From the NCBI GenBank assembly GCA_016180525.1, contig JACPBB010000001.1, positions 169,180-233,179 of the forward strand: a DNA stretch of 64,000 nt, given 5' to 3'. The stretch is from Parcubacteria group bacterium (lineage in GTDB: Bacteria > Patescibacteriota > Minisyncoccia > Phycocordibacterales > UBA2135). Positions 3,175-57,795 of the stretch are shown here, one piece after another (positions within the stretch are counted from its first letter, which is position 1; every line of letters starts with the position of its first letter). The position numbers and the translations under genes were made by a program. The notes beneath the pieces were generated by a model. That model had not been told where the DNA came from and ran no database searches. It saw only the letters and a program-made list of their open reading frames with translations.

Positions 3175-6100
3175 TTACTTTTCATTGCTTAGCTCCACAT
3201 CAAGCGCAAGCGCTTTTAAATGATGCATGAGCACATTAAAAGATTCGGGTAAGTTCGGCTCTCGTAATTCCTCTCCTTTTATAATTGAATCAAACGTCGC
3301 CGCACGACCTAAAATATCGTCTGATTTCACGGTGAGCATCTCACGAAGTGTGTGCGCCGCGCCGTATCCTTCAAGCGCCCAGACTTCCATCTCTCCAAAC
3401 CTCTGCCCACCCCCTTGCGCCTTTCCTCCAAGTGGCTGCTGATGAATGAGCGAATACGGACCGATAGAGCGCATGTGGATTTTATCTTCAACCATGTGAT
3501 GCAATTTCATAATGTACATGTATCCGATGGCAATTTCTTGCTCAAACTGTTCTCCTGTGCGCCCGTCATAAAGTTTTACCTTTCCATTTTCATTGAAGCC
3601 GGCTTTTTTGAGTTCCTGTTTAATTTCCTCTTCTGTCGCGCCCAAAAACGGAGGAGTAATCGCCTGATAATTAAGCGTGTGCGCGGCAAGTCCGAGATGC
3701 AGCTCTAAAATCTGCCCCAAGTTCATACGAGACGGAACTCCAAGCGGAGTTAAAATAACGTCAATCGGGGTGCCGTCAGCGAGGTATGGCATTTCTTCTG
3801 TGGGAAGAATTTTTGAAATAACTCCCTTGTTGCCGTGTCGCCCCGCAAGCTTGTCTCCCACCGTTACGGTGCGCAGCTGTGCAACTTCCACATGAATGCG
3901 CTTGATGGTTCCTGAATCAAGCTCGTCGCCGTTGTCGCGAGAAAATACCTTAACCCGTATGACACGCCCCCGCTTTCCGTGCTCCATTCTTTTTGAAGTA
4001 TCTTTTACGTCACGCGCTTTTTCTCCGAAAATTGAACGCAGGAGCCGCTCTTCGGGAGTGAGCTCCGCTTCTCCTTTGGGGGTAATTTTCCCGACTAAAA
4101 TATCGTTCGGCCCCACTTCAGCGCCGACCATCACAATCCCGTCTTCATCAAGATTTTTCAGCTTTGCTTCTCCGACATTTGGTATGTCGTGGGTTGTAAT
4201 TTCAGGACCAAGTTTCGTATCTCGGACGTTTACCTGAAACTCATCAACATAAAGAGACGTAAAGACATGGTCGCGCACAAGCCGCTCCGATAAAATAATG
4301 GCGTCTTCATAGTTCGCCCCGCTCCATGACATAAACGCGACAAGAACGCTCTGCCCGAGAGAAATTTCTCCGTCAACAGTTGAAGCATTATCGGCAAGGG
4401 GCGTCCCCTTTTTAACTTTTTGCCCAAGCTCCACTATCGGACGCTGCCTGAACGCGGTGACTTCGTTTGTTTTTACGAAATTTACCAGTTTATATTCTTT
4501 CTCTTTGTTCTTTTTTGCTTTAGAATTTTTAGTAATAATTTTATTTCCATCAACGGCAATAACAGTTCCCTCTTCTTCGGCAACAACAATTCTACCGGAG
4601 TCGGCGGCCGCTTTCCCTTCAATGCCTGTAGCAACACGCGGTCTCTGCGGAATAATGCACGGCACCGCCTGCTTTTGCATGTTTGAACCCATGAGCGCCC
4701 TGTTCGCGTCATCATGTTCAAGAAATGGAATAAGAGATGTCGCGACAGAAAACGGCTGGTTTGAGGCAACGTCAATAAAATGAACGTCCTTGGTGCTCAC
4801 AAGCCGAACCTGACCTTCTTTGCCTTTCGCGCGAACTTCCACGAACTTCTCCACAAAAACACCATCGTCGTTATAGGCGGTTGCCGCGTGCGCAATATTA
4901 TAATTTTCCTCTTCAATGGCGTTTAAATAGACGATTTCTTTTGTCACGATGCCATCTACAACTTTAAGATACGGGGTTTCAATAATCCCAAACTCATTTA
5001 CACGGGCAAACATCGAAAGACGAAGGATGAGCCCGATACTCTGTCCTTCAGGGGTGTGAATGGGACAGACACGTCCATAGTGAGACGGGTGCACGTCTCG
5101 CACTTCAAAACCGGCTCTCTCGCGAGTAAGTCCACCCGGGCCAAGCGCGGAGAGCGTGCGCAAGTGTTCAAGCTCGTCAAGCGCGTTTTTTTGGTTCATG
5201 TATTGAGTAAGTTGGTGCGTGTTGAAAAATTCTTTAATAGATGTCTGCAACGGTCTTGGGTTTATAAGTTGCACGGGAAGCATTGTTTCGGGATCCGTTG
5301 TCGACATTCTGTCTTGAATATTGCGCTTCATGCGGGAAAGCCCGACCCGAATGCGCTGTTCAAGCATTTCCCCCATAAAGCGAACGCGCCGGACGCCTAG
5401 GTGATCAATATCGTCACCTTCCGCTCCGGGAGTGTGGTTGAGCGTAATAATATGAGAAATAATGGTCACTAAGTCGTCCGCGGAGATAGTGCGTCTGTCC
5501 ACCTCTTTCTTATCCATGCTTTTATTGAACATTTTGTTAAATCGGTAACGTCCGACCGGAGAGAGGTCATAGCGCTCAGCGCCGAATATCCCGTCAATGA
5601 ATTCCTTCGCGTTTTCAGCAGAAGCCAATGTGCCGTCACGAAGCCGTTTATATATTTCAATATATGATTCATCCACCGTGTGCGCGGCGTCTTTCGCGAT
5701 TGATGTTTTAATGTATTGAACTGCGTGCTCATTGCCTTTAAAAAGATTCAGCAATTCTGCTTCAGTTTTGGCACCGCTGAATATTCGGAGAAGTGCCGTA
5801 GCGGAAATTTTTCGTTTTTTATCTATACGGACGTAAATCGCCCCGTCTGCTTCTGATTCAATTTCAATCCACGCGCCACGGGAAGGAATTATTTTTGCTC
5901 CAAAATATTTTACTCCACGTGTTTCCTGTTCGTTGAAGAACACTCCGAATGAACGAGCAAGCTGAGAGACCACAACGCGCTCGTTACCGTTAATGATAAA
6001 CGTGCCGTGCGGAGTCATAATCGGGAAATCCACAAGGAAAATTTCCTGTTCTTTTTCTTTACCAAGATTTTTGTTTTTTAGTTTGACGATTGCCCGAAGC

Positions 6101-38240: not shown

Positions 38241-38786
38241 ATGAGTGTCATTTTAACTCTTCTTCGGTGGAATCAGCCCCTTCACCGATGCAAAGAATTC
38301 AAAACAGAAGAAGACCTCGTAAAAGAATTCGGTCGGCGCAGTGGCGGGGTCTCATTTTCAGAGCGTGAAGTCCGAAATGTAGCACGCCGCATTGTCAGCG
38401 CCTTGAGTCAGACTTGCGTTGCTGAGCAGGTTGCGAAAGAATGGGGTTCGCTCCCCTCCATGCTCCAGCGCTACATTATGCAGATCGGAAACGAGGGCGG
38501 ACATTCTGGCAATGTTGGAAAGGGGTTCGCCTATCTTGACCAACTGCTTGGCGGAACAATCCGCCGTGCGCCGGATACCGACGTCACTGAACGGCGACTT
38601 CGCGTGTACGACGGAGTGCTCATCTCGGAGCGCCATCGCATAGATCCGGCACGGGCTCGCGCTCAAGCCCTCTACGCAAATACGGAACGGCCGGCAAATT
38701 ACGACTCTCTGTCAAAGCGAGAAAAGAAACAGATTGACCGAGAGTTGACACTAGCGCGAAAAGAAATGCGCCAACAAAAACGATAA
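38241..38786 (+). CDS. hypothetical protein, GC-rich
   Basis: 181 aa; strong RBS AAGGAGG 8 nt upstream; TTGACT-N17-TATTTT promoter-like upstream; no recognised family. Confidence 0.5.
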   Translation: MSVILTLLRWNQPLHRCKEFKTEEDLVKEFGRRSGGVSFSEREVRNVARRIVSALSQTCVAEQVAKEWGSLPSMLQRYIMQIGNEGGHSGNVGKGFAYLDQLLGGTIRRAPDTDVTERRLRVYDGVLISERHRIDPARARAQALYANTERPANYDSLSKREKKQIDRELTLARKEMRQQKR

Positions 38787-39111: not shown

Positions 39112-39684
39112 TTAGCGAGAATATAAACCGATCAATTCTGCCTTCTCCAACACATGCCCCATCATTGCCTCCTCAAGGGCCCCTTTATCTGTCTCTTTAG
39201 AAAGATTAAGTTCCGCATCAAGCGCGTAGAGTTTAAAGAAATAACGATGCTCTCCATCTGGAGGGCACGGCCCACCGTATCCGGGTTTTCCGAAATTCGT
39301 CATTCCCTCTACCGCACCCTTAGGCACGCTGTTTTCTTTTATTTCTTTTGTGCCAGGAGATATGTTCCATAGAGTCCAATGCACCCAAAGTCCCACAGGA
39401 GCATCTGGATCATCCATAATAAGCGCGAGTGTTTTTGTCCCATTTGGAATATTAGAAAACGAAAGAGGCAGACTCACATTTTCCCCATCACACGTATATT
39501 TTTGAGGAATAATTTCGTTGTGTTTAAACGCCGAGCTTTCAATTTTCATATTTCCTAATTTAGTATTCGTAATGAGTGCACTATTAAATATAACATACAA
39601 TAAAGTAAGTGTAAGTACAATGCTACTTAAAATGACAGCTGCTCGCATATCATCTGTTAGTTTAACATAATTCTTTACAAGCAA
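39112..39684 (-). CDS. YbhB/YbcL-family phosphatidylethanolamine-binding (PEBP) protein, membrane-anchored
   Basis: …LALIMDDPDAPVGLWVHWTLWNI… and …GYGGPCPPDGEHRYFFKLYALD… are PEBP signatures. Confidence 0.85.
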   Translation of the reverse strand: MLVKNYVKLTDDMRAAVILSSIVLTLTLLYVIFNSALITNTKLGNMKIESSAFKHNEIIPQKYTCDGENVSLPLSFSNIPNGTKTLALIMDDPDAPVGLWVHWTLWNISPGTKEIKENSVPKGAVEGMTNFGKPGYGGPCPPDGEHRYFFKLYALDAELNLSKETDKGALEEAMMGHVLEKAELIGLYSR

Positions 39685-39700: not shown

Positions 39701-39883
39701 ATGCAGGTAGTATCCACAAGGATGGTCTCTATGAATATCCGGGAGTTTGGTTGTGCTATGTTACGCATGTGGAGAGTCGTGCGTGGACCGCTTGCCACAT
39801 TCTGTTTCCTTATATTTGTATTATTTATAGTCGTTCTGGTAATGCAGTTTGCCGGAGCCGTAAGGCCTTCAATCCCTCTATAA
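39701..39883 (+). CDS. possible small hydrophobic protein (60 aa)
   Basis: ORF followed at once by a plus-strand hairpin + T-run (39889-39925) that overlaps the 3' end of ogt. Confidence 0.25.
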   Translation: MQVVSTRMVSMNIREFGCAMLRMWRVVRGPLATFCFLIFVLFIVVLVMQFAGAVRPSIPL

Positions 39884-40141
39884 CAGTAAAGCGCCTTCTT
39901 TTTTGAGAAGCGCTTTTTTCTTTTGTATTCCCCTATTGTAGCCACCAAGCGTGCCATTTGATTTAATAACCCGATGGCACGGAATAGCGGGGTCGTAATT
40001 TTTTGAAAGAATCCGACCGACAGCGCGATACGCAAGTGGCGCGCCAGCACGGCGCGCCACTTCTTTATAGGTAAGTATTTCCCCTCTCGGAATTTTTTTC
40101 ACCACCTCAAAAACACATCTGGTAAATCGTGTTTTGTTCAT
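39878..40141 (-). CDS. ogt: methylated-DNA--protein-cysteine methyltransferase, short single-domain form
   Basis: 87 aa; active-site IPCHRVI and the HTH …YKEVARRAGAPLAYRAVGRIL…. Confidence 0.85.
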   Translation of the reverse strand: MNKTRFTRCVFEVVKKIPRGEILTYKEVARRAGAPLAYRAVGRILSKNYDPAIPCHRVIKSNGTLGGYNRGIQKKKALLKKEGALLL

Positions 40142-40403
40142 ATTCCGTGAGTGCGTATTCTATTGCCGTGCTGATTTAAATGCCGAGAGAATATTCGCAA
40201 AGAAATTGTTCCTCTCGCGAGATGATATAGGCGAAGCACTCTGCGCTTTGCATCGCGTGCAGAGATTGTAGTTTTGAGAATCGGGTGACCCCACATAAGA
40301 ACATTCTGGAACAGTAGTAAAGTTAGCACACAACTCCGGCGTAACAGGAATATACCTATGGCTAATAATTTTCTATTTGTGGTTATTAAGATGCTCATAT
40401 TTT

Positions 40404-40646
40404 TTATCTTAACGGATTGTTATATTTAAATGGATTTGCCCGGTCAAGAGGATTTATTTCCGGTACGTCTTCTCCGGGATTAGTTTGAATTTGGGGAACT
40501 GATTCGCTTACATCTTTTGCTGTTTCAACGACACCAACAGGAGGCTTTTCTTTTTGAAATACATACCAAAGACCTACAGCTATAATAAGAAGAACGATAA
40601 CGCCGCCTGCGATTATTTTTGGATCTGTTTTTGATTGTGATTCCAT
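40404..40646 (-). CDS. small single-pass membrane protein with C-terminal NPxx/NPF motifs (paralogue of 43291..43554)
   Basis: 80 aa: charged N-terminus, TM helix IIAGGVIVLLIIAVGLWYVF, tail …TNPGEDVPEINPLDRANPFKYNNPLR. Confidence 0.55.
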   Translation of the reverse strand: MESQSKTDPKIIAGGVIVLLIIAVGLWYVFQKEKPPVGVVETAKDVSESVPQIQTNPGEDVPEINPLDRANPFKYNNPLR

Positions 40647-40701
40647 AATTAAATTAGATATTTATTCTATTAAACAATCTACCTTTCATGCAACCTTCCC
40701 A

Positions 40702-43197
40702 TCAACGAAACAATGGATTAAAAGCGGAGAGAATATTGGCAAATATAGTTAATACGTCGAGAGATGATGTGGGCGGAGGTGGGGGTGGCTGTGAGAAATC
40801 TCCTGGGGGAGACGTGAAACTGCCGCTTGTCCCCCCATCAAAACTGCCTGTTGGCGGAGGCGGCACAAACGAACTGCTTCCTTCAAAGCTTCCGCTTGGT
40901 GGCGGTGGTACAAAAGTTCCTTCCTGATGAAATTCTCCACTTGGAGAACCTCCCGGTGGTGGAGGAGTAAACCCAGCATCGGGCTGAGTAAAGCTTCCTT
41001 CTGGAGGATGCGAAAAGTCTCCTGGTGGCGAAGCAAATGAACCGGGGTTAAAACTACCGCTCGTCCCGCCGCCAAAACTTCCCGGTGGCGGAGGAGCAAA
41101 CCTATCATCAGGCTGGGTAAAGCTTCCTGAGTGGTCTTCAAAACTTCCCGTTGGTGAAAAAGTATTCGGTTGGGGAGCAAAGTTACCAGTTGCGGGTGGC
41201 TGAGTAAAACTTCCTCCAGGGGGATGCGGAAAATTGCCATCAGGCGGAGTAAAACTTCCGGGTTGAGGAAAGCCATGAAACTTACCACGGTCCTCACCGC
41301 TTCCGTCAAATCCATCACGCCCGCCGGGGAAACCACCTGGCTGAAAACCTGGAAATTCACTCGATTCAAATTCATCACCTTCGTTGCCTTCCCTTCTCGG
41401 AAATCCAAAGCCTGGCGGTGGAGGAAGACCGCGGAATTGACCATCTTCGCCATCTCTTTGAAATCTATCCTGATCAAGAAATTGTTCTGGAAGTGGAGCG
41501 GAGTGTCCTTCTCGTTCAAACTGCGCTCGCTGTTCGTCCGAAATTTGAAATTCTTCTCCTTCATGAAAGCCTTCACGAAATCCTTGACCCTGAATGAAAT
41601 CACCTTGTTGTGGAATTCTGCCCTGCTCAAATTCCCCTCTCAGTTGCTTAAATTGCTCAAATCGCGACTTAAACTGCTCCTCAACCTTACTTCGCTCTTC
41701 CGGAGGAATATTTTCAAACCCTGGTGGAAATCCACCCTCACCCGAGGGACCAAAACCCTGTCCAGGAAACCCTTGAGGACCACCACCCGAAAAGCCAGAA
41801 GGACCAAATCCTTGTGGGCTGCCAGGTCCAAATCCTTGAGGGTTAAAACCTCCCGGACCGGGTGGGCCAAAACCTCCTTGAGGCCCACGTGGTCCAAAAT
41901 GCTCAACTTCAATAAATTGACGGAGCGACTGTTCGGCTTCGTCAGGAGAAAGAAATCCTTCATTGACTGCAAATGCGGCGCACTCATCAAAATGTGAAGT
42001 GTCCGTGCAATATGTCCGACATTCCCTCTCTCCGCGACACCCACCAGGTCCGCCTTGCTCCTCTACTTTCTTTTCAATATTCTTAAACTTTTCAATGCGC
42101 TCTAACTCTCCCGGCGGCAACAGATTGTTGTTTTTTGCAAATTCAAAACATTGCTCGCGATTGTCGGGATTATTGCAAAATGCCTCACATTCTCTTCCTT
42201 TACACCCACCAGGACCGCCATGTTCCTCAACGACACTTACAAAGCGATTAATTTCTTCAAACTCCTCATCATTCATAAAACCTTGTGCATGCGCAAAATT
42301 AAGACACTCCCGTTCATGCCCAGGCGCTTCACAGTATGCCTCACATGCTCTCCCACGACATCCGCCAGGGCCTTCAGCGCTTGACAGTCGTTTAAATTTT
42401 TCGGCTTCCGCGGGGTCCATGAGCCCGTGCTCTATTGCGAAATTGAAACAGACCTCTTCGTTTCCTGCCGTTGAGCAAAACTCTTCACATGCGTCAAAAT
42501 CTTCACAACCACCAGGTCCACCGCCTAATTCAGCAAGAACTTGTGCGGCCCTTGATTCATCTATTCGTGGCCCTCCAGGACCAGGACCTCCTCTTCGCGA
42601 AGCCTGTGGACCAAACTCACCTGCTCCTCTAAACCCTCCTGCTTCATTGTTTAAAAATGATTTTATTTGCCGAGCTTGTTCAGCAGTCATGTGTCCTTCA
42701 GCAACGGCAAAATCAATACATTCAATTTGATTTCCCGGCTCACTGCAAAAATCCCGACATTCCTCTTCGCCACGACATCCGCCAGGGCCACCTCGCGCTT
42801 GTTGTTCTCTAATTCTAGCTGCTTCCTCGGATGATATATGACCGTGTTCTACGCCATATTGAAGACATTCGTCCGAGTGAGCCGGGTCGTTGCAATATGA
42901 AAAACATTCGTTTTCATCCGAGCACCCACCAGGACCTTCTCTAACTTCAACATCCCGGGGCTCCTCTACCTCAATGCCATGTTCATTTGCCCAAGTGATG
43001 CATACATTTTCGTTGTCAGGATTATCACAAAACGTGTGACATTCTTCTAGATTGGTGCAGTTGCCAAGTTCGGCAATTGGAAATTCTATATCAAATGGAT
43101 TTTGCGCGTGCGCAGCAAACGCGAATGCAAAAAGAAAGACAACAACAGGAACGGCTATAAAAAATAAAATAGTGAGTTTGTGTTTAAAAGAATTCAT
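40702..43197 (-). CDS. large secreted protein: signal peptide + seven tandem about 45-aa 4-Cys repeats (GGPGGC-x5-C-x3-C-x7-C-x2-FA…G…EA) + about 450-aa Gly/Pro/Phe/Gln/Glu-rich disordered tail
   Basis: 831 aa; signal MNSFKHKLTILFFIAVPVVVFLFAFAFAAHA; repeats such as PGGCRGEEECRDFCSEPGNQIECIDFAVAEGHMTAEQARQIKSF. Tail holds GSFTQP and PPPPxGSF repeats and ends hydrophobic (…LDVLTIFANILSAFNPLFR). Confidence 0.8.
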   Translation of the reverse strand: MNSFKHKLTILFFIAVPVVVFLFAFAFAAHAQNPFDIEFPIAELGNCTNLEECHTFCDNPDNENVCITWANEHGIEVEEPRDVEVREGPGGCSDENECFSYCNDPAHSDECLQYGVEHGHISSEEAARIREQQARGGPGGCRGEEECRDFCSEPGNQIECIDFAVAEGHMTAEQARQIKSFLNNEAGGFRGAGEFGPQASRRGGPGPGGPRIDESRAAQVLAELGGGPGGCEDFDACEEFCSTAGNEEVCFNFAIEHGLMDPAEAEKFKRLSSAEGPGGCRGRACEAYCEAPGHERECLNFAHAQGFMNDEEFEEINRFVSVVEEHGGPGGCKGRECEAFCNNPDNREQCFEFAKNNNLLPPGELERIEKFKNIEKKVEEQGGPGGCRGERECRTYCTDTSHFDECAAFAVNEGFLSPDEAEQSLRQFIEVEHFGPRGPQGGFGPPGPGGFNPQGFGPGSPQGFGPSGFSGGGPQGFPGQGFGPSGEGGFPPGFENIPPEERSKVEEQFKSRFEQFKQLRGEFEQGRIPQQGDFIQGQGFREGFHEGEEFQISDEQRAQFEREGHSAPLPEQFLDQDRFQRDGEDGQFRGLPPPPGFGFPRREGNEGDEFESSEFPGFQPGGFPGGRDGFDGSGEDRGKFHGFPQPGSFTPPDGNFPHPPGGSFTQPPATGNFAPQPNTFSPTGSFEDHSGSFTQPDDRFAPPPPGSFGGGTSGSFNPGSFASPPGDFSHPPEGSFTQPDAGFTPPPPGGSPSGEFHQEGTFVPPPPSGSFEGSSSFVPPPPTGSFDGGTSGSFTSPPGDFSQPPPPPPTSSLDVLTIFANILSAFNPLFR

Positions 43198-43201
43198 GTG
43201 T

Positions 43202-43287
43202 TTAGGCTCTAGGTGGTTAGGCCTTAGGCTTTAGGAATATTAGAAGTTTTTATTTTTCTAATGCCTAGTGCCTAGCGCCCAATGCCT
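43202..43287. repeat. Intergenic imperfect-palindrome element, copy 3
   Basis: TTAGGCTC-TAGGTGG-TTAGGCC-TTAGGCT-TTAGG / AT-rich loop / TAATGCC-TAGTGCC-TAGCGCC-CAATGCC. Starts 5 nt upstream of the 43197 ATG. Confidence 0.8.
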
Positions 43288-43290
43288 CAT

Positions 43291-43554
43291 TTACTGTTGA
43301 AACGGATTAGTTACGGCTCCTTCAAAAGGGTTTTTGTATCCTTCTTCAAAGGGATTCACTGTTTCCGCAAACGGGTTTGCCGCCTCCGCAATCGCCTCTT
43401 GCGCGGCTTTTTTTTCTGCCTCAACGGCTGCTGCCTGTTCTGCCACATATGCCTTTTTCCCTTGCAAAACTCCAATAAAATAACCGCCCCCCGCACCAAC
43501 AAGAAGCGCGACAATCGCTGCGATAATTAATTTGTTTTGTGGATGGTCTTCCAT
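43291..43554 (-). CDS. small single-pass membrane protein with four C-terminal NPF motifs
   Basis: 87 aa; TM LIIAAIVALLVGAGGGYFIGVL, an Ala/Glu-rich helix, tail …ANPFAETVNPFEEGYKNPFEGAVTNPFQQ. Confidence 0.55.
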   Translation of the reverse strand: MEDHPQNKLIIAAIVALLVGAGGGYFIGVLQGKKAYVAEQAAAVEAEKKAAQEAIAEAANPFAETVNPFEEGYKNPFEGAVTNPFQQ

Positions 43555-43751
43555 AATAAAAAAGAAATCTAAGCGATTTTATGCTTAAAATCACACAGAA
43601 TTAATAAAAATAATAATAGATTTATACCTTATATCATTATACCCCCTATGTATTATTATTAACAACATTATCCACAGATATAATCTAAAAAATAAAGAAA
43701 AAGAAGCCGCATAAGGCTTCTTTGACTACGCAATATTACATGTGCGTCCTA

Positions 43752-43982
43752 TTATCGTGAATATACAGGAACAGGGCCGGCGCCGGTGACTTCCGGCTGT
43801 CCGCGAAACGCGTTTGCCCAGCGCACTTCCGTGCCTTTGGGGACAGTAATAAAATAAAAATCTCCTGAAACGCACACCTTGCCGAACTCAAGGCCAAAAT
43901 CTTTCACTATTTGCTCCACCACTTTGCCGGCAACGTTTGTTTTGCAAGTTACCACAATTTTTCCAGAACCGCTCTTCGCCAT
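43752..43982 (-). CDS. hypothetical small protein downstream of mnmA
   Basis: 76 aa; no confident family. Confidence 0.4.
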   Translation of the reverse strand: MAKSGSGKIVVTCKTNVAGKVVEQIVKDFGLEFGKVCVSGDFYFITVPKGTEVRWANAFRGQPEVTGAGPVPVYSR

Positions 43983-46538: not shown

Positions 46539-47831
46539 TTATACGGGAAGATTCGCTGGAGGCTCTGCTTTTTGTGATTCAATTCGTTTGAAAGTCGGCG
46601 TTTCGGAAACTTGACCCGGAAAGTGATAAATAGTTGCAAGTTCTTCTGTATTTAAAACATACGGTTGCCGTTCATACGGGGGGAAAAACCATGAGCGCCT
46701 TCGATATGCGTCAAAAAATTTCCATTTTTTATATAGCAAGCGTCTTCCTTTAGGTGAAAAAAACGGAACCTGAGTTGGCGGATCAAAAAAAGGAATATTT
46801 ATATATTTCTGCCAAGGATAATCATAAGCAGCATAATCTCGTGGTTTAAAGCCGTTTAAATCATTTGAACTGTATTGCTTCATCGTTCCGAATAATCCGG
46901 CAACGTTTGCAGGATTGTATATACTTTTCTTCGCAAGATACAGCCCTCTGATACCACAATCAAGCCCGTGTTTTCCCGTGCTTCTGTCTATGGCCTTAAT
47001 AACATTTCGCTCGCCCTCCGTAAGCATTGAGAACCGAAAATCACTTGTCGCATCTTCAGGAAGCGGACCAGAACGTTCTTTTGCCTCATCCATAATTTTT
47101 TTAGTAAGCTCCTTTCCTTCTTCTTGCCAATTACGTTTACGCCACATTGTTGTAAAATCTTTTTCTCCCTTATTGGCGCGAACAAGAATTTGCACCCACG
47201 CCTGCTCTCCACGCCCCAAATCCCCGAGCCATTCAATAACCGAAAGCATCGGGTCAACCTTGAATTCCTCTTTCGGATCTTTTTCAAGACCATAATCAAC
47301 ATATGTTTTTATTGGATATGGATCGGGCTTGGTTAACTTCCATTCAACAGCAAAAAGATCCCAATCGGAACCTTCTTTTGCGTAGGGAACATCAGCGGTA
47401 TAGTCGGAAACTTCTTTAATTTCCGCTGTTGGATATTGTGAATATATCTGGGTTTCAATAAACTTTTTATACCCCTCACGAGTCCATATTAAAAAACGAA
47501 CATCGCCTTCAACGGAAATCATTTCAAGCGAAAAATCAGCGCGTACTTTTCCTAAAATATATCGGTCATACCAGTTTGACTCCCCGATAGTTTGATGAAA
47601 CGTTCCGAGCACAATTTCCATCGCAAGGGGTGATTTCGGAACATCCCGTGGAACTTTTATCTGGAGTAAAATATATTTTTGTTTGGCGAAAAATTGCTCC
47701 CTCCGAGCAAGCACCCACAGATGCCGAAAAATAAAAACAAGAACTACCGGGAGCGCGTAAATAAAAAATGAAGACGCGTACGCTACAAAAAATGTAAAAT
47801 TTTCTCCTAAAAAATTAAGGGATGCTTCCAT
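46539..47831 (-). CDS. hypothetical membrane-anchored protein (430 aa), translationally coupled to mltG
   Basis: Its stop abuts the mltG start; N-terminal TM helix; no recognised family. Confidence 0.5.
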   Translation of the reverse strand: MEASLNFLGENFTFFVAYASSFFIYALPVVLVFIFRHLWVLARREQFFAKQKYILLQIKVPRDVPKSPLAMEIVLGTFHQTIGESNWYDRYILGKVRADFSLEMISVEGDVRFLIWTREGYKKFIETQIYSQYPTAEIKEVSDYTADVPYAKEGSDWDLFAVEWKLTKPDPYPIKTYVDYGLEKDPKEEFKVDPMLSVIEWLGDLGRGEQAWVQILVRANKGEKDFTTMWRKRNWQEEGKELTKKIMDEAKERSGPLPEDATSDFRFSMLTEGERNVIKAIDRSTGKHGLDCGIRGLYLAKKSIYNPANVAGLFGTMKQYSSNDLNGFKPRDYAAYDYPWQKYINIPFFDPPTQVPFFSPKGRRLLYKKWKFFDAYRRRSWFFPPYERQPYVLNTEELATIYHFPGQVSETPTFKRIESQKAEPPANLPV

Positions 47832-52568: not shown

Positions 52569-53147
52569 CTAATTTTTGGAAAATTTTTTTACTCCCGCCC
52601 AGAGGAGCGCGACGAGCGCGATACCGAGAATAATAACGCGCAGGTAGTCTTGCATTTCAGACCAGTAGCGGACTGACGCGATAAAGAGCGTAATGACTCC
52701 GCCTGCGGCAAGCGCGGGTGCCACAACCGCAATCGCGCGAAGGAGGAAGCTCGCGACAAGCGTAAGCGTGCCGAGTACTACAAGCGCGATAAATACATTT
52801 CGTTGGTATAGTTTCCACGCTTCATTATAGTCTGCGCTACAGGTAAAATCTTCGTTGCAATATCCTTTTTGTTCCTCTGTAATAACCGGCGGTTCAATAT
52901 ATTGCGCACGTGGAAGTCCTTTTTGAACATAAATGCCCTCAACCCATTGGCCTCCAACAAGGACACACTCATCTTGCGTTTGGGGAATAATGTGAACCTG
53001 CTCTTTGGCACAAAATGTATCATACGTGGGCTGCTCATACACGAGCTGAATACTAAAAATAAAGAACAAGTTAAGAACAATAATAATGGCCGCGGCAAGC
53101 GCGAGTTTCAAAATATTTGCTTTCGTAAAAAAATGGTTTCTTTCCAT
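52569..53147 (-). CDS. hypothetical membrane protein
   Basis: 192 aa, N- and C-terminal TM segments, Cys-containing periplasmic middle. Confidence 0.5.
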   Translation of the reverse strand: MERNHFFTKANILKLALAAAIIIVLNLFFIFSIQLVYEQPTYDTFCAKEQVHIIPQTQDECVLVGGQWVEGIYVQKGLPRAQYIEPPVITEEQKGYCNEDFTCSADYNEAWKLYQRNVFIALVVLGTLTLVASFLLRAIAVVAPALAAGGVITLFIASVRYWSEMQDYLRVIILGIALVALLWAGVKKFSKN

Positions 53148-57204: not shown

Positions 57205-57795
57205 TTATTTGGTTGAAAAATCTGGTTCAATGCTCGCGAAAACCCGCTTCTTAATACTCTCGTATAACCCTCGAATATAATAGAAGATTTTATTAAAGAC
57301 CTTAAATACAAAATCATCAATCAGCGTCCACAGAACGCTCCACGGCCAAAATGTCATCCATGTCACGATTTTCTCTTTATAGTCAAAAATGCTTGAACGA
57401 ATGAGGCGCTTCATTTCACTGTGCGTATTGGTTCTCTTCCAATTCTCAAGATTTTTCTCGTCCATATCACTATCCGAGAAGTGTTGTTTCTTTAATTCTT
57501 CATATTCTTCCTTCTTGTTCAAGAGATAAAAATACCATTTCAGCACCGACCAGACGGTGCCACACACCAGATAGCCACCAAAATACATAAAGATTGCGAA
57601 CGGATGATTTTTCAGATACGTAAACAGATGAAGGTCGCCCAAAAACTGCAAGAGCAAAAAGGTGCCAAGGAGAACAAAGATGCCGAGAAACGGCCGCTCG
57701 TTTTCGGTACACGCAAACAGTGCAATATTGGCAATAACGACTAGCGTCCAAAACCCAAACGACCCGAGCACAAACAAACCAAAAAACCATTCCAT
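57205..57795 (-). CDS. hypothetical membrane protein
   Basis: 196 aa, 4 TM helices. Confidence 0.5.
   Translation of the reverse strand: MEWFFGLFVLGSFGFWTLVVIANIALFACTENERPFLGIFVLLGTFLLLQFLGDLHLFTYLKNHPFAIFMYFGGYLVCGTVWSVLKWYFYLLNKKEEYEELKKQHFSDSDMDEKNLENWKRTNTHSEMKRLIRSSIFDYKEKIVTWMTFWPWSVLWTLIDDFVFKVFNKIFYYIRGLYESIKKRVFASIEPDFSTK

Follow-up and report, generated by a model that had tools for sequence, protein, structure and literature searches.

Do the three genes at this locus build one surface structure, and if so, which of them belong together? Parcubacteria/Paceibacteria are among the most abundant uncultured bacteria of groundwater and their surface biology is mostly unknown, while it is the cell surface that decides feeding, attachment and phage resistance of such minimal cells. 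The stretch of Parcubacteria DNA analyzed here (64,000 nucleotides, referred to as the window) had been described in an earlier note as carrying three co-oriented ORFs, a giant secreted protein flanked by two small membrane peptides. All three ORFs are present where they had been placed, all on the minus strand, and the features of the locus are listed below in the direction of reading.

43700-43723: terminator-like hairpin of the preceding gene
43636-43665, minus strand: promoter-like site TTGTTA-18-TATAAT 5′ of the 87-aa gene, from a consensus scan in which such sites were no more numerous in the region than in shuffled sequence
43291-43554, minus strand: type-A NPF peptide, 87 aa (ORF), with one hydrophobic helix and the tail ANPFAETVNPFEEGYKNPFEGAVTNPFQQ
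43198-43290, minus strand: intercistronic spacer of 93 nt between the 87-aa and 831-aa genes, forming one long imperfect hairpin
40702-43197, minus strand: Sec-exported Cys-repeat protein, 831 aa (ORF)
43105-43197, minus strand: its signal peptide, residues 1-31 (sequence read directly; modelled N-terminal helix; equivalent N-termini in homologues)
41893-43104, minus strand: seven helical 4-Cys units, residues 32-435, opening with the conserved NPFDIEFPIAELGNC
40762-41892, minus strand: G/P/F/S/Q-rich disordered tail, residues 436-812 minus an internal helix (pLDDT <50; GFGP, PPPPGSF and GSFTQP motifs)
41596-41736, minus strand: helical stretch conserved within the tail, residues 488-534, EERSKVEEQFKSRFEQFKQLRGEFEQGR
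40705-40761, minus strand: C-terminal amphipathic/hydrophobic helix, residues 813-831, LDVLTIFANILSAFNPLFR (modelled as a helix with low pLDDT; no docking)
40404-40646, minus strand: type-B NPF peptide, 80 aa (ORF), with one hydrophobic helix and a tail ending in INPLDRANPFKYNNPLR
40138-40398, minus strand: type-B Cys-repeat pseudogene, a deletion remnant of ~260 nt recognized by similarity to type-B genes

About 4.2 kb of the locus is 100% identical between two assemblies built from independent read sets. The 93-nt spacer folds into its hairpin at −30 kcal/mol (z = −4.1), which none of 200 shuffled sequences equalled, and other loci with long spacers form similar hairpins from unrelated sequences. 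An Rfam search of the locus returned nothing credible.

To see which genes travel together, related loci were searched with alignment A2, a closer set than the alignment A1 used below. In 62/62 of these loci the ORF immediately upstream of the Cys-repeat gene encodes a co-oriented NPF peptide, and in none of them does one lie downstream, where the 62 comprise 58 found by the strict rule, three in which the start of the large ORF had been over-called, and one cut at a contig end. The gap between peptide and large gene is ≤40 nt in most loci, and no other neighbour is common to more than 5 of the 62. The pairing was also recovered from the opposite direction: a metagenome scan for DNA encoding NPF-x5-NPF-x5-NPF gave 15 genuine ORFs with a TM helix and C-terminal NPF motifs, and in all 12 that had at least 600 nt of sequence downstream a Cys-repeat ORF came next. 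No natural fusion of peptide and rod was seen among 245 retrieved proteins. The NPF peptide and the Cys-repeat gene are a real, undescribed pair found across Parcubacteria/Paceibacteria, and our search of the literature on cysteine-rich surface proteins of CPR/Parcubacteria and on NPF found no description of the family. The suggestion that the genes belong together is borne out, and conservation of the small ORFs in relatives, which the note had made a test of its idea, holds for the upstream peptide, whereas the three-gene unit with flanking peptides has to be replaced by a conserved unit of two, peptide then large gene. From a single unusual locus a family is thereby defined that follows a simple, checkable rule: an NPF peptide always precedes a Cys-repeat protein.

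The family is large (about 1,860 clusters at 50% identity), with loci spread over many candidate phyla of the Parcubacteria group, among them Azam-, Wildermuth-, Lloyd-, Yanofsky-, Jorgensen-, Kaiser-, Uhr- and Doudnabacteria. We define its large member by a signal peptide, the motif [FY]P[IV]xELGNC and at least four units of GPGGC-x4/5-C-x3-C-x8-C-x2-FA; the window protein has these with seven units, a layout it shares with 120 database homologues and 62 genome loci. The small member is defined as a protein of <150 aa with one N-terminal TM helix, a Cys-repeat gene directly 3′, and at least two NP[FLY] motifs in its last 45 residues, the last of them 0-2 residues from the end. All of this is found in the 87-aa ORF, and all but the downstream Cys-repeat gene in the 80-aa ORF, because there that gene is a remnant only. 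Together the definitions give annotators two signatures by which to recognize genes whose present label is uniformly 'hypothetical'. Searching with the 87-aa peptide alone found 8 close relatives, a low yield because the query is too short, and synteny is far more informative.

The two small proteins are indeed relatives within one family, as had been proposed, both consisting of an N-terminal TM helix and C-terminal NPF/NPL motifs. In the 87-aa peptide a short N-terminus leads into a Gly-rich TM helix LIIAAIVALLVGAGGGYFI; an Ala/Glu/Lys helical stalk follows, and then four NPF motifs, of which the final one stops 2 residues short of the C-terminus. The 80-aa peptide has a TM helix and a tail ending in VPEINPLDRANPFKYNNPLR with the motifs NPL/NPF/NPL. 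Across the family the peptides are single-pass membrane proteins with 2-5 C-terminal NPF motifs, the last being 0-2 residues from the C-terminus in 62/63 peptides. Comparison with L003 showed 31 synonymous and 18 non-synonymous codon changes in the 87-aa ORF, and comparison with L039 showed 23 synonymous and 28 non-synonymous changes in the 80-aa ORF. By these codon counts the synonymous share is above the neutral-drift expectation in both, which indicates purifying selection on the 87-aa ORF and is consistent with selection on the intact 80-aa ORF. Chance ORFs were rejected on this codon evidence together with conservation. Charge distribution favours an N-in, C-out topology for the peptides as a group: among the 63, the N-flank of the helix is more positive in 40, equal in 17 and less positive in 6, and in 48 the N side has the higher net charge. 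The positive-inside signal of the window's own 87-aa peptide reads as ambiguous, with 2 positive charges per flank, where the N-flank figure includes +1 for the N-terminal amine, and net charges of 0 (N side) and +1 (C side). The NPF tails of the two window peptides carry net charges of −5 and −2.

The large protein begins with a Sec-type signal peptide that has neither a twin-arginine motif nor a lipobox Cys and is likely cleaved after AHA (AHA-QNPF, read by eye); Sec-type signal peptides occur across the family. Exactly 28 Cys fall in seven units, as previously counted. The spacing is C-x5(or x4)-C-x3-C-x8-C-x2-[FWY][AG], so that of the pattern first proposed, C-x5-C-x3-C-x7-C-x2-FA, the x5, x3 and x2 intervals hold, with x4 occurring as well, and x7 is corrected to x8. 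An invariant GGPGGC start to every unit does not describe the array, as unit 1 begins ELGNC, and the repeats are not evenly tandem: first Cys residues lie at 47, 92, 141, 231, 280, 332 and 387, and a disordered insert of ~40 aa separates units 3 and 4. The predicted structure of the array is helical (pLDDT 86), and in the secondary-structure assignment of the model Cys 2 and Cys 3 are one helical turn apart with Cys 4 on the next helix. A His/Asn is conserved between Cys 3 and Cys 4, acidic residues stand beside the Cys, and the rod as a whole is strongly acidic (net −50). The unit was counted 1391 times in 182 family proteins, in arrays of 5-12 units per protein, and 1379 units (99%) keep all four Cys. 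Such recurrence places the pattern far beyond chance, and for the same reason units that have lost a Cys are uninformative about disulfide pairing.

We found no recognizable Pfam domain in the 831-aa protein, and an NCBIfam scan returned 0 families at E ≤ 1. The repeat unit gave no significant match to EGF-like, metallothionein, Kazal, zinc-finger or Fe-S profiles or to any solved structure. The idea of a secreted Cys-repeat protein with unrecognized domains therefore survives the profile and structure searches made against it, and what results is a confidently modelled repeat unit for which Pfam, NCBIfam and PDB yielded no match.

The tail was put at about 450 aa before; we measure ~395 aa (436-831) with one confidently modelled helix inside. 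Residues 436-812 are 20% G, 19% P, 13.5% F and 10% S, and no tandem repeats were found at the DNA level under this low-complexity region. The internal helix (499-524, pLDDT 73-94 in the full-length model) has the pattern F..RF..FE.FR..FE conserved in alignment A1 (27 sequences) and matches Pfam Metal_resist below threshold, at 17 bits with a cut-off of 29. Across the family the part that follows the Cys array is disordered, Pro/Gly-rich and fast-evolving. The tail is otherwise poorly conserved, with other members Q-, M- or E-rich, and some relatives have a LamG-lectin (ConA-like) or Kazal domain in the C-terminal half. These accessory LamG and Kazal domains are typically extracellular, an observation in favour of export. 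The short hydrophobic segment noted earlier at the C-terminus is there, following a poly-Pro run and TSS and ending in Arg. A comparable segment occurs in 78/183 family proteins, a count that depends on the hydrophobicity cut-off used, and 56 of the 78 have K/R in the last 3 residues.

If the conserved unit is a peptide followed by a large gene, the 80-aa peptide, which stands downstream, needs another explanation. Its tail differs very little from the tails of peptides heading type-B large genes in L039, L040, L046 and L048, where this subtype leads a large gene of its own. Directly 3′ of it in the window, ~19 signal-peptide codons run, out of frame, straight into approximately the final 60 codons of such a gene. 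The piece MSILITTNRKLLAIGIFLL aligns with MKTLITVNRKLLLAILFLV of L048, and for CANFTTVPECSYVGSPDSQNYNLCTRC the match is to the C-terminal ends of L030, L039 and L048 (59% over 32 aa, tblastn E 1e-7). By these alignments, the 80-aa peptide leads a second cassette, of type B, whose large gene is nearly all lost, next to an intact cassette A of the 87-aa and 831-aa genes. An assembly artefact was rejected because the two independent assemblies are identical. L005 and L040 hold both cassette types in one genome, on separate contigs and each with its own peptide subtype, and the family as a whole shows cassettes being acquired, diversifying (LamG, Kazal) and disappearing within lineages.

What the pair does can be proposed from sequence and predicted structure. 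We tentatively favour, at a little less than an even chance, a module of the cell envelope (extracytoplasmic) with two components, restricted to Parcubacteria/Paceibacteria, which in the window has a decayed second copy after it. The NPF peptide would insert N-in, C-out, leaving its acidic tail outside the cell, where each Cys unit may be stabilized either by a pair of disulfides or by a Cys4 metal site. CPR bacteria are reportedly enriched in an MdbA-like oxidoreductase and VKOR, which make extracytoplasmic disulfides (preprint 10.1101/335083). Peptide and rod would bind physically, the repeated NPF serving as short linear motifs that hold or organize the multi-unit rod at the membrane surface, and the C-terminal helix could add a second, weaker membrane contact, with the disordered region as a flexible spacer or a matrix. 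Since the rod and the NPF tails are both acidic, simple electrostatic docking is argued against unless cations bridge them. In favour of the module, NPF motif number is correlated with Cys unit number (Spearman 0.34, p 0.007). Standing against it, this correlation is weak and the C-terminal helix is missing from many family members.

It is possible, though we consider it doubtful, that the NPF tail is a short linear motif and the 4-Cys unit its receptor domain, a bacterial pairing not known before, in which a multivalent NPF 'strap' at the membrane would bind successive Cys units, possibly via bridging cations. This is a concrete binding hypothesis that can be addressed with two small recombinant proteins. 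If true, the pair would build an envelope layer or tether peculiar to this lineage and central to the surface of Paceibacteria, with swappable C-terminal payloads (disordered matrix, LamG lectin, Kazal inhibitor) setting the role of each cassette.

The earlier note had leaned towards an adhesin or fibre for host attachment with small anchoring subunits; on such a reading, rod and tail would project from the cell and adhere to a host or to particles. A secreted, elongated, repeat-built protein suits this, as do the ConA-like/LamG lectin or Kazal domains of some family members and a fast-evolving tail, expected of a surface exposed to selection. However, the window protein has no recognizable binding domain, the most conserved part is the rod and not a tip, and pilus, sortase and secretion genes are absent from the neighbourhood, and we regard an adhesin as unlikely. 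The peptide could instead be no stable structural partner at all, acting as a dedicated transient helper in export, folding or Cys oxidation, or as a membrane-bound regulator. The pairing is strict and the genes closely adjacent, 28 Cys need correct pairing or loading after Sec export, and the stable hairpin in long spacers could uncouple the expression levels of the two genes. Yet known folding helpers are folded domains, not disordered tripeptide repeats at an extreme C-terminus, and the window's type-B peptide is intact, with codon changes consistent with selection, after loss of its large gene, which would be odd for a dedicated chaperone, leaving this explanation improbable as well. Tight operon pairing as such also fits a transient helper or regulator, a point against the two-part module.

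The remaining two explanations concern the large protein itself. An extracellular metal-binding or redox protein, with Cys4 units that coordinate Zn, Fe or Cu or switch between thiol and disulfide states, might serve to buffer or take up metal, or to exchange electrons in anoxic groundwater. The four invariant Cys of each unit, the His/Asn and acidic residues near them and a very acidic, and so cation-attracting, rod all agree with such a role, and in the model the helix placement of Cys 2, 3 and 4 could bring all four close. This is quite unlikely in our view, as the protein is exported by Sec, unfolded and with no Tat motif, from bacteria that own disulfide-forming machinery; C-x5-C-x3-C-x8-C is no known metal-site or Fe-S signature, with metallothionein, zinc-finger and ferredoxin models unmatched; and the sub-threshold Metal_resist match sits in the tail helix, not in the Cys units. 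An envelope matrix or S-layer-like coat, meshed through cohesive Phe/Gly/Pro-rich tails with the small peptide as membrane anchor, would account for the composition of the window's tail and its GFGP and GSF motifs, which resemble FG-repeat or elastomeric proteins, for the layout of large protein plus small anchor, and for a spread across the lineage such as a housekeeping envelope part would have. Set against this, tail composition is not conserved, with other members rich in Q, M or E, and lattice-forming beta domains are absent, making a coat very unlikely. A RiPP precursor with its modifying enzyme was rejected because no enzymes are linked, and a type IV pilin because there is no pilin-like N-terminus.

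Among known systems, the wall-spanning surface proteins of Gram-positives (LPXTG/sortase substrates) resemble the large protein in their Sec signal peptide, in the folded repeats of the N-terminal part and in a low-complexity, Pro-rich spacer, and perhaps in a hydrophobic C-terminal segment that ends basic. The window protein, however, has no LPXTG-like motif (regex LP.[TSA][GASN]), and its segment is short (16-18 aa), amphipathic and followed by a single Arg, weaker than the canonical TM helix with a K/R cluster. There is no linked sortase gene, and sortase substrates have no counterpart to the obligatory NPF partner. Sorting signals of the PEP-CTERM, PGF-CTERM and GlyGly-CTERM types are not matched either (0 NCBIfam families at E ≤ 1), with no PEP motif and PGF only inside the tail. 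In Sulfolobales, the large outer S-layer protein SlaA is held by the smaller membrane-anchored stalk SlaB, and the two genes are co-transcribed. The likeness lies in a gene pair for a membrane-anchored small protein and a large exported one, but the two systems are alike in neither sequence nor fold. The anchor here has only ~80-110 aa and a motif tail that is disordered, and the partner is a helical Cys-repeat rod with a disordered tail in place of a beta-domain lattice.

NPF recognition by EH domains is eukaryotic (Eps15, epsin), and resembles the proposed pair in having several acidic-flanked NPF in a disordered tail and a candidate receptor of small helical units. The pair would, however, be set outside the cell, and its last NPF sits 0-2 residues from the C-terminus (62/63 peptides), which is not a feature of EH ligands; none of the three window proteins has an EH or EF-hand domain, and there is no conserved third gene nearby. 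Family member P0080 is named a Kazal-type inhibitor protein by NCBI, and a true Kazal domain does occur in the C-terminal half of some members, but as an accessory insertion only; the window protein is without it and the 4-Cys unit is not Kazal. Helical mini-domains stabilized by cysteines (twin CX3C/CX9C CHCH hairpins, alpha-hairpinins and scorpion CS-alpha/beta toxins) likewise carry a CX3C pair on one helix that could be pinned to a neighbouring element, and the sole PDB sequence match of the unit profile was a scorpion toxin, which has the C-x5-C-x3-C part in common with the unit.

All three ORFs of the locus are present and, as the earlier note had claimed, co-oriented; they lie on the minus strand, and both the ORF listing and the sequence support the following coordinates:

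43291-43554, minus strand: NPF peptide gene, 87 aa
40702-43197, minus strand: Cys-repeat protein gene, 831 aa
40404-40646, minus strand: NPF/NPL peptide gene, 80 aa

Over ~4.2 kb of the locus, two independent read-set assemblies match the window at 100% identity. In each of the small proteins a short polar N-terminus precedes a single hydrophobic helix and an acidic tail with terminal Asn-Pro-Phe/Leu motifs (four NPF in the 87-aa protein; NPL, NPF and NPL in the 80-aa protein), and the numerous synonymous changes that a codon comparison showed in both mark them as real coding genes. A promoter-like site and the terminator-like hairpin of the preceding gene lie directly upstream of the 87-aa gene.

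To place the locus among its relatives, one genome per species was scanned, giving 65 loci from many Parcubacteria-group candidate phyla; the large ORF could be delimited in 62, on which all pairing counts are based. In 58 of these, a small ORF in the same orientation, encoding a TM helix and two or more NP[FLY…] motifs, ends no more than 400 nt upstream, and in most of them the gap does not exceed 40 nt. Three further loci have the peptide next to a large ORF whose start was over-called, and in the last the peptide is cut at the contig end, bringing the total to 62/62. No NPF-type ORF was found downstream in any of the 62 loci, and all-against-all clustering of neighbouring ORFs revealed no other family common to more than five. 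In the reverse test, metagenome contigs were searched for DNA that encodes NPF-x5-NPF-x5-NPF. Matches were mostly simple-repeat noise; the genuine ones were 15 small ORFs whose products combine a TM helix with an NPF tail at the C-terminus, and the 12 with 600 nt or more of sequence downstream all had a Cys-repeat ORF 118–210 nt past the stop. The association is therefore bidirectional in the samples examined. Conservation of the small ORFs in relatives is thus borne out for the upstream peptide, while the proposed three-gene unit with flanking peptides is not what these loci show. At one locus (L017), a lone Cys-repeat gene is preceded by two successive genes for peptides with a TM helix and NP-motif tail (4286-4630 and 4662-4958), so the number of peptide genes is variable.

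The third gene belongs to a different subtype. In type-A peptides, such as the 87-aa protein, a GGGY-type TM helix is followed by an AEQ…AEKKAAQE stalk and then by an NPFxxxxNPF tail. The 80-aa peptide is unlike these, and its tail is near-identical to those of peptides leading the type-B large genes of related loci L039, L040, L046 and L048 (…VPEINPLDRANPFKYKNPLR), whose large proteins have an additional N-terminal domain. Searching the window with type-B proteins (tblastn) gave a match at 40250-40345 (59% identity over 32 aa, E 1e-7) corresponding to their extreme C-terminus and, in a different frame, an ATG at 40398 starts MSILITTNRKLLAIGIFLL, matching the type-B signal peptide of L048.

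40138-40398, minus strand: type-B large-gene deletion remnant (C-terminal tblastn match and signal-peptide match)

The two matches lie in different frames, with about 19 signal-peptide codons joined out of frame to roughly the last 60 codons. This stretch is therefore the leftover of a type-B large gene that has undergone an internal, frame-breaking deletion. The locus thus consists of two tandem cassettes, the 87-aa and 831-aa genes (cassette A) followed by the 80-aa gene and its decayed partner, rather than a single three-gene unit. In L003, L005 and L009, the closest relatives, cassette A is followed by the PEBP-family gene with no type-B peptide between, an MGMT-like gene preceding the PEBP-family gene in L003 and L005. 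Both cassette types occur in one genome on separate contigs (L005 and L040). At its end the remnant reading frame also has NNFFANILSAF, the helix motif found at the C-terminus of the 831-aa protein.

The 831-aa protein begins with a Sec-type signal peptide (…FAFAAHA|QNPF) and has exactly 28 Cys in seven units, whose first Cys fall at residues 47, 92, 141, 231, 280, 332 and 387. The claimed number of seven repeats is correct; the array is interrupted, with a disordered stretch of ~40 aa inserted between units 3 and 4. The claimed spacing was near, with x7 being wrong (C-x5/4-C-x3-C-x8-C is the actual pattern), and the supposedly invariant GPGGC start is ELGNC in unit 1. Beyond the units lie ~395 disordered aa (G 20%, P 19%, F 13.5%, S 10%) containing a conserved helix at residues 499-524 and ending in LDVLTIFANILSAFNPLFR. 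Net charge is −50 for the Cys-repeat rod (residues 32-435) and −27 for the disordered tail, and the NPF tails are acidic too; this composition points to possible cation binding (Ca2+ or Mg2+) or to contacts bridged by cations.

None of the searches matched the repeat to a known domain. Pfam gave just a sub-threshold Metal_resist match located in the tail helix, NCBIfam gave none, and neither the rod sequence nor a seven-unit profile matched the PDB, the top profile hit being a scorpion toxin (E 1.5) with the same C-x5-C-x3-C. An AlphaFold2 model of residues 30-440, built from 121 sequences, predicts an all-helical repeat array (mean pLDDT 86.4). In each unit Cys 1 sits in the GPGG loop ahead of a short helix bearing Cys 2 and Cys 3; a second helix holds Cys 4, and a longer helix serves as the connector. 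The full-length model retains the rod and gains a confident helix 499-524, with residues 436-487 and 535-812 disordered and the C-terminal helix of low confidence and undocked. CPR bacteria are reported to be enriched in an MdbA-like oxidoreductase and VKOR (preprint 10.1101/335083); given this and Sec export, two disulfides per unit is our default reading, and each unit may alternatively be a Cys4 metal site.

At least 759 homologues turned up in a word-indexed search, every one labelled hypothetical and, where a source is given, from Parcubacteria or Patescibacteria. When the unit profile was run exhaustively with HMMER against 1.84 billion representatives, it returned 1,859 clusters at 50% identity (E <= 1e-3), 959 of them reaching E <= 1e-30. 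All homologues share a signal peptide, [NS]PFDIxFPIxELGNC, 5–12 Cys units and a variable Pro-rich tail, often ending with a hydrophobic or amphipathic segment and a final R/K. The unit consensus is GGPGGC[RK][GS]xEEC-x-A-[YF]-C-x-D-P-x-[HN]-x-x-E-C-x-x-F-A-x3-G[LF], and all four Cys are present in 1379 of 1391 units from 182 family proteins. In their C-terminal half some members carry either a Laminin_G_3 (ConA-like lectin) domain or a Kazal domain (L040 residues 694-842, L046 778-932, and database homologues P0178, P0080 and P0013), sometimes with extra Cys units after it, which suggests a scaffold role for the rod, kept constant, and an exchangeable payload in the C-terminal half. Pfam confirms the LamG domain in type-B L040 and L046, and L048 aligns across the same region; the 831-aa protein has neither domain. 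Several subfamilies that otherwise differ have, instead of the amphipathic helix, an alternative conserved C-terminus with four more Cys (C-x-x-F-x-x-VPSCSYVGPxGSQNYNYCKQCFPDK; large genes of L030, L039, L048 and L059, and window 40250-40345). Many genome records with this Parcubacteria-type cassette (L003, L009, L010 and other 'binchicken' records) are titled 'uncultured Candidatus Saccharibacteria bacterium', and this title looks like a generic placeholder rather than taxonomy.

Across 63 peptides the N-terminal flank of the TM helix is more positive in 40, equal in 17 and reversed in 6, and in 48 the N side has the higher net charge. This favours an N-in, C-out orientation that would put the NPF tail outside the cell, with the signal for the 87-aa peptide itself being ambiguous. 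The last NPF lies 0–2 residues from the C-terminus in 62/63, and the commonest motif-to-motif spacing is 8 residues.

Since the pairing is strict, bidirectional and closely adjacent, the most economical reading is that the two products cooperate physically: a membrane peptide with repeated motifs and a secreted repeat-unit protein would meet at the outer face of the membrane, where the NPF tail may tether or organise the rod. The matched subtypes of peptide and large protein are consistent with a tether, as is the weak correlation between NPF motif and Cys unit number (rho 0.34, p 0.007). Counting against it, the rod (−50) and the peptide tails (−5 and −2) are all acidic, and the genetics fit equally well with a peptide that is a transient helper. 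Host-adhesin, metal-binding and matrix readings are further rivals to the tether. The anatomy and conservation of the locus are solid, and it is its function that we infer.

Secreted repeat surface proteins with a small membrane partner are a familiar kind of system. The unfamiliar elements are the repeat domain and its NPF partner, together with the invariable pairing of the two; neither component was recognised in the protein-family libraries, solved structures and literature searched.

Several neighbouring ORFs of 76–430 aa have no Pfam match (43752-43982 on the minus strand, 38241-38786, 46539-47831, 52569-53147 and 57205-57795). Other features of the surroundings are:

39112-39684: PEBP-family protein
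39878-40141: MGMT-type DNA-binding-domain protein, just 87 aa
57918-58493: membrane-anchored staphylococcal-nuclease homologue
43198-43290, minus strand: spacer between the 87-aa and 831-aa genes, long hairpin (−30 kcal/mol, z −4.1)

Long spacers between peptide and large gene (about 80–230 nt) fold as a single long stable hairpin in the window and in L004, L035, L011, L046 and L048 (z −6.9 for L004 at 4881-4988, −5.7 for L035, −6.2 for L048). From locus to locus the hairpins share no sequence relationship, and none has a U-tract; they could be mRNA processing or stability elements that set how much peptide is made relative to large protein or, alternatively, independent insertions of palindromic elements.
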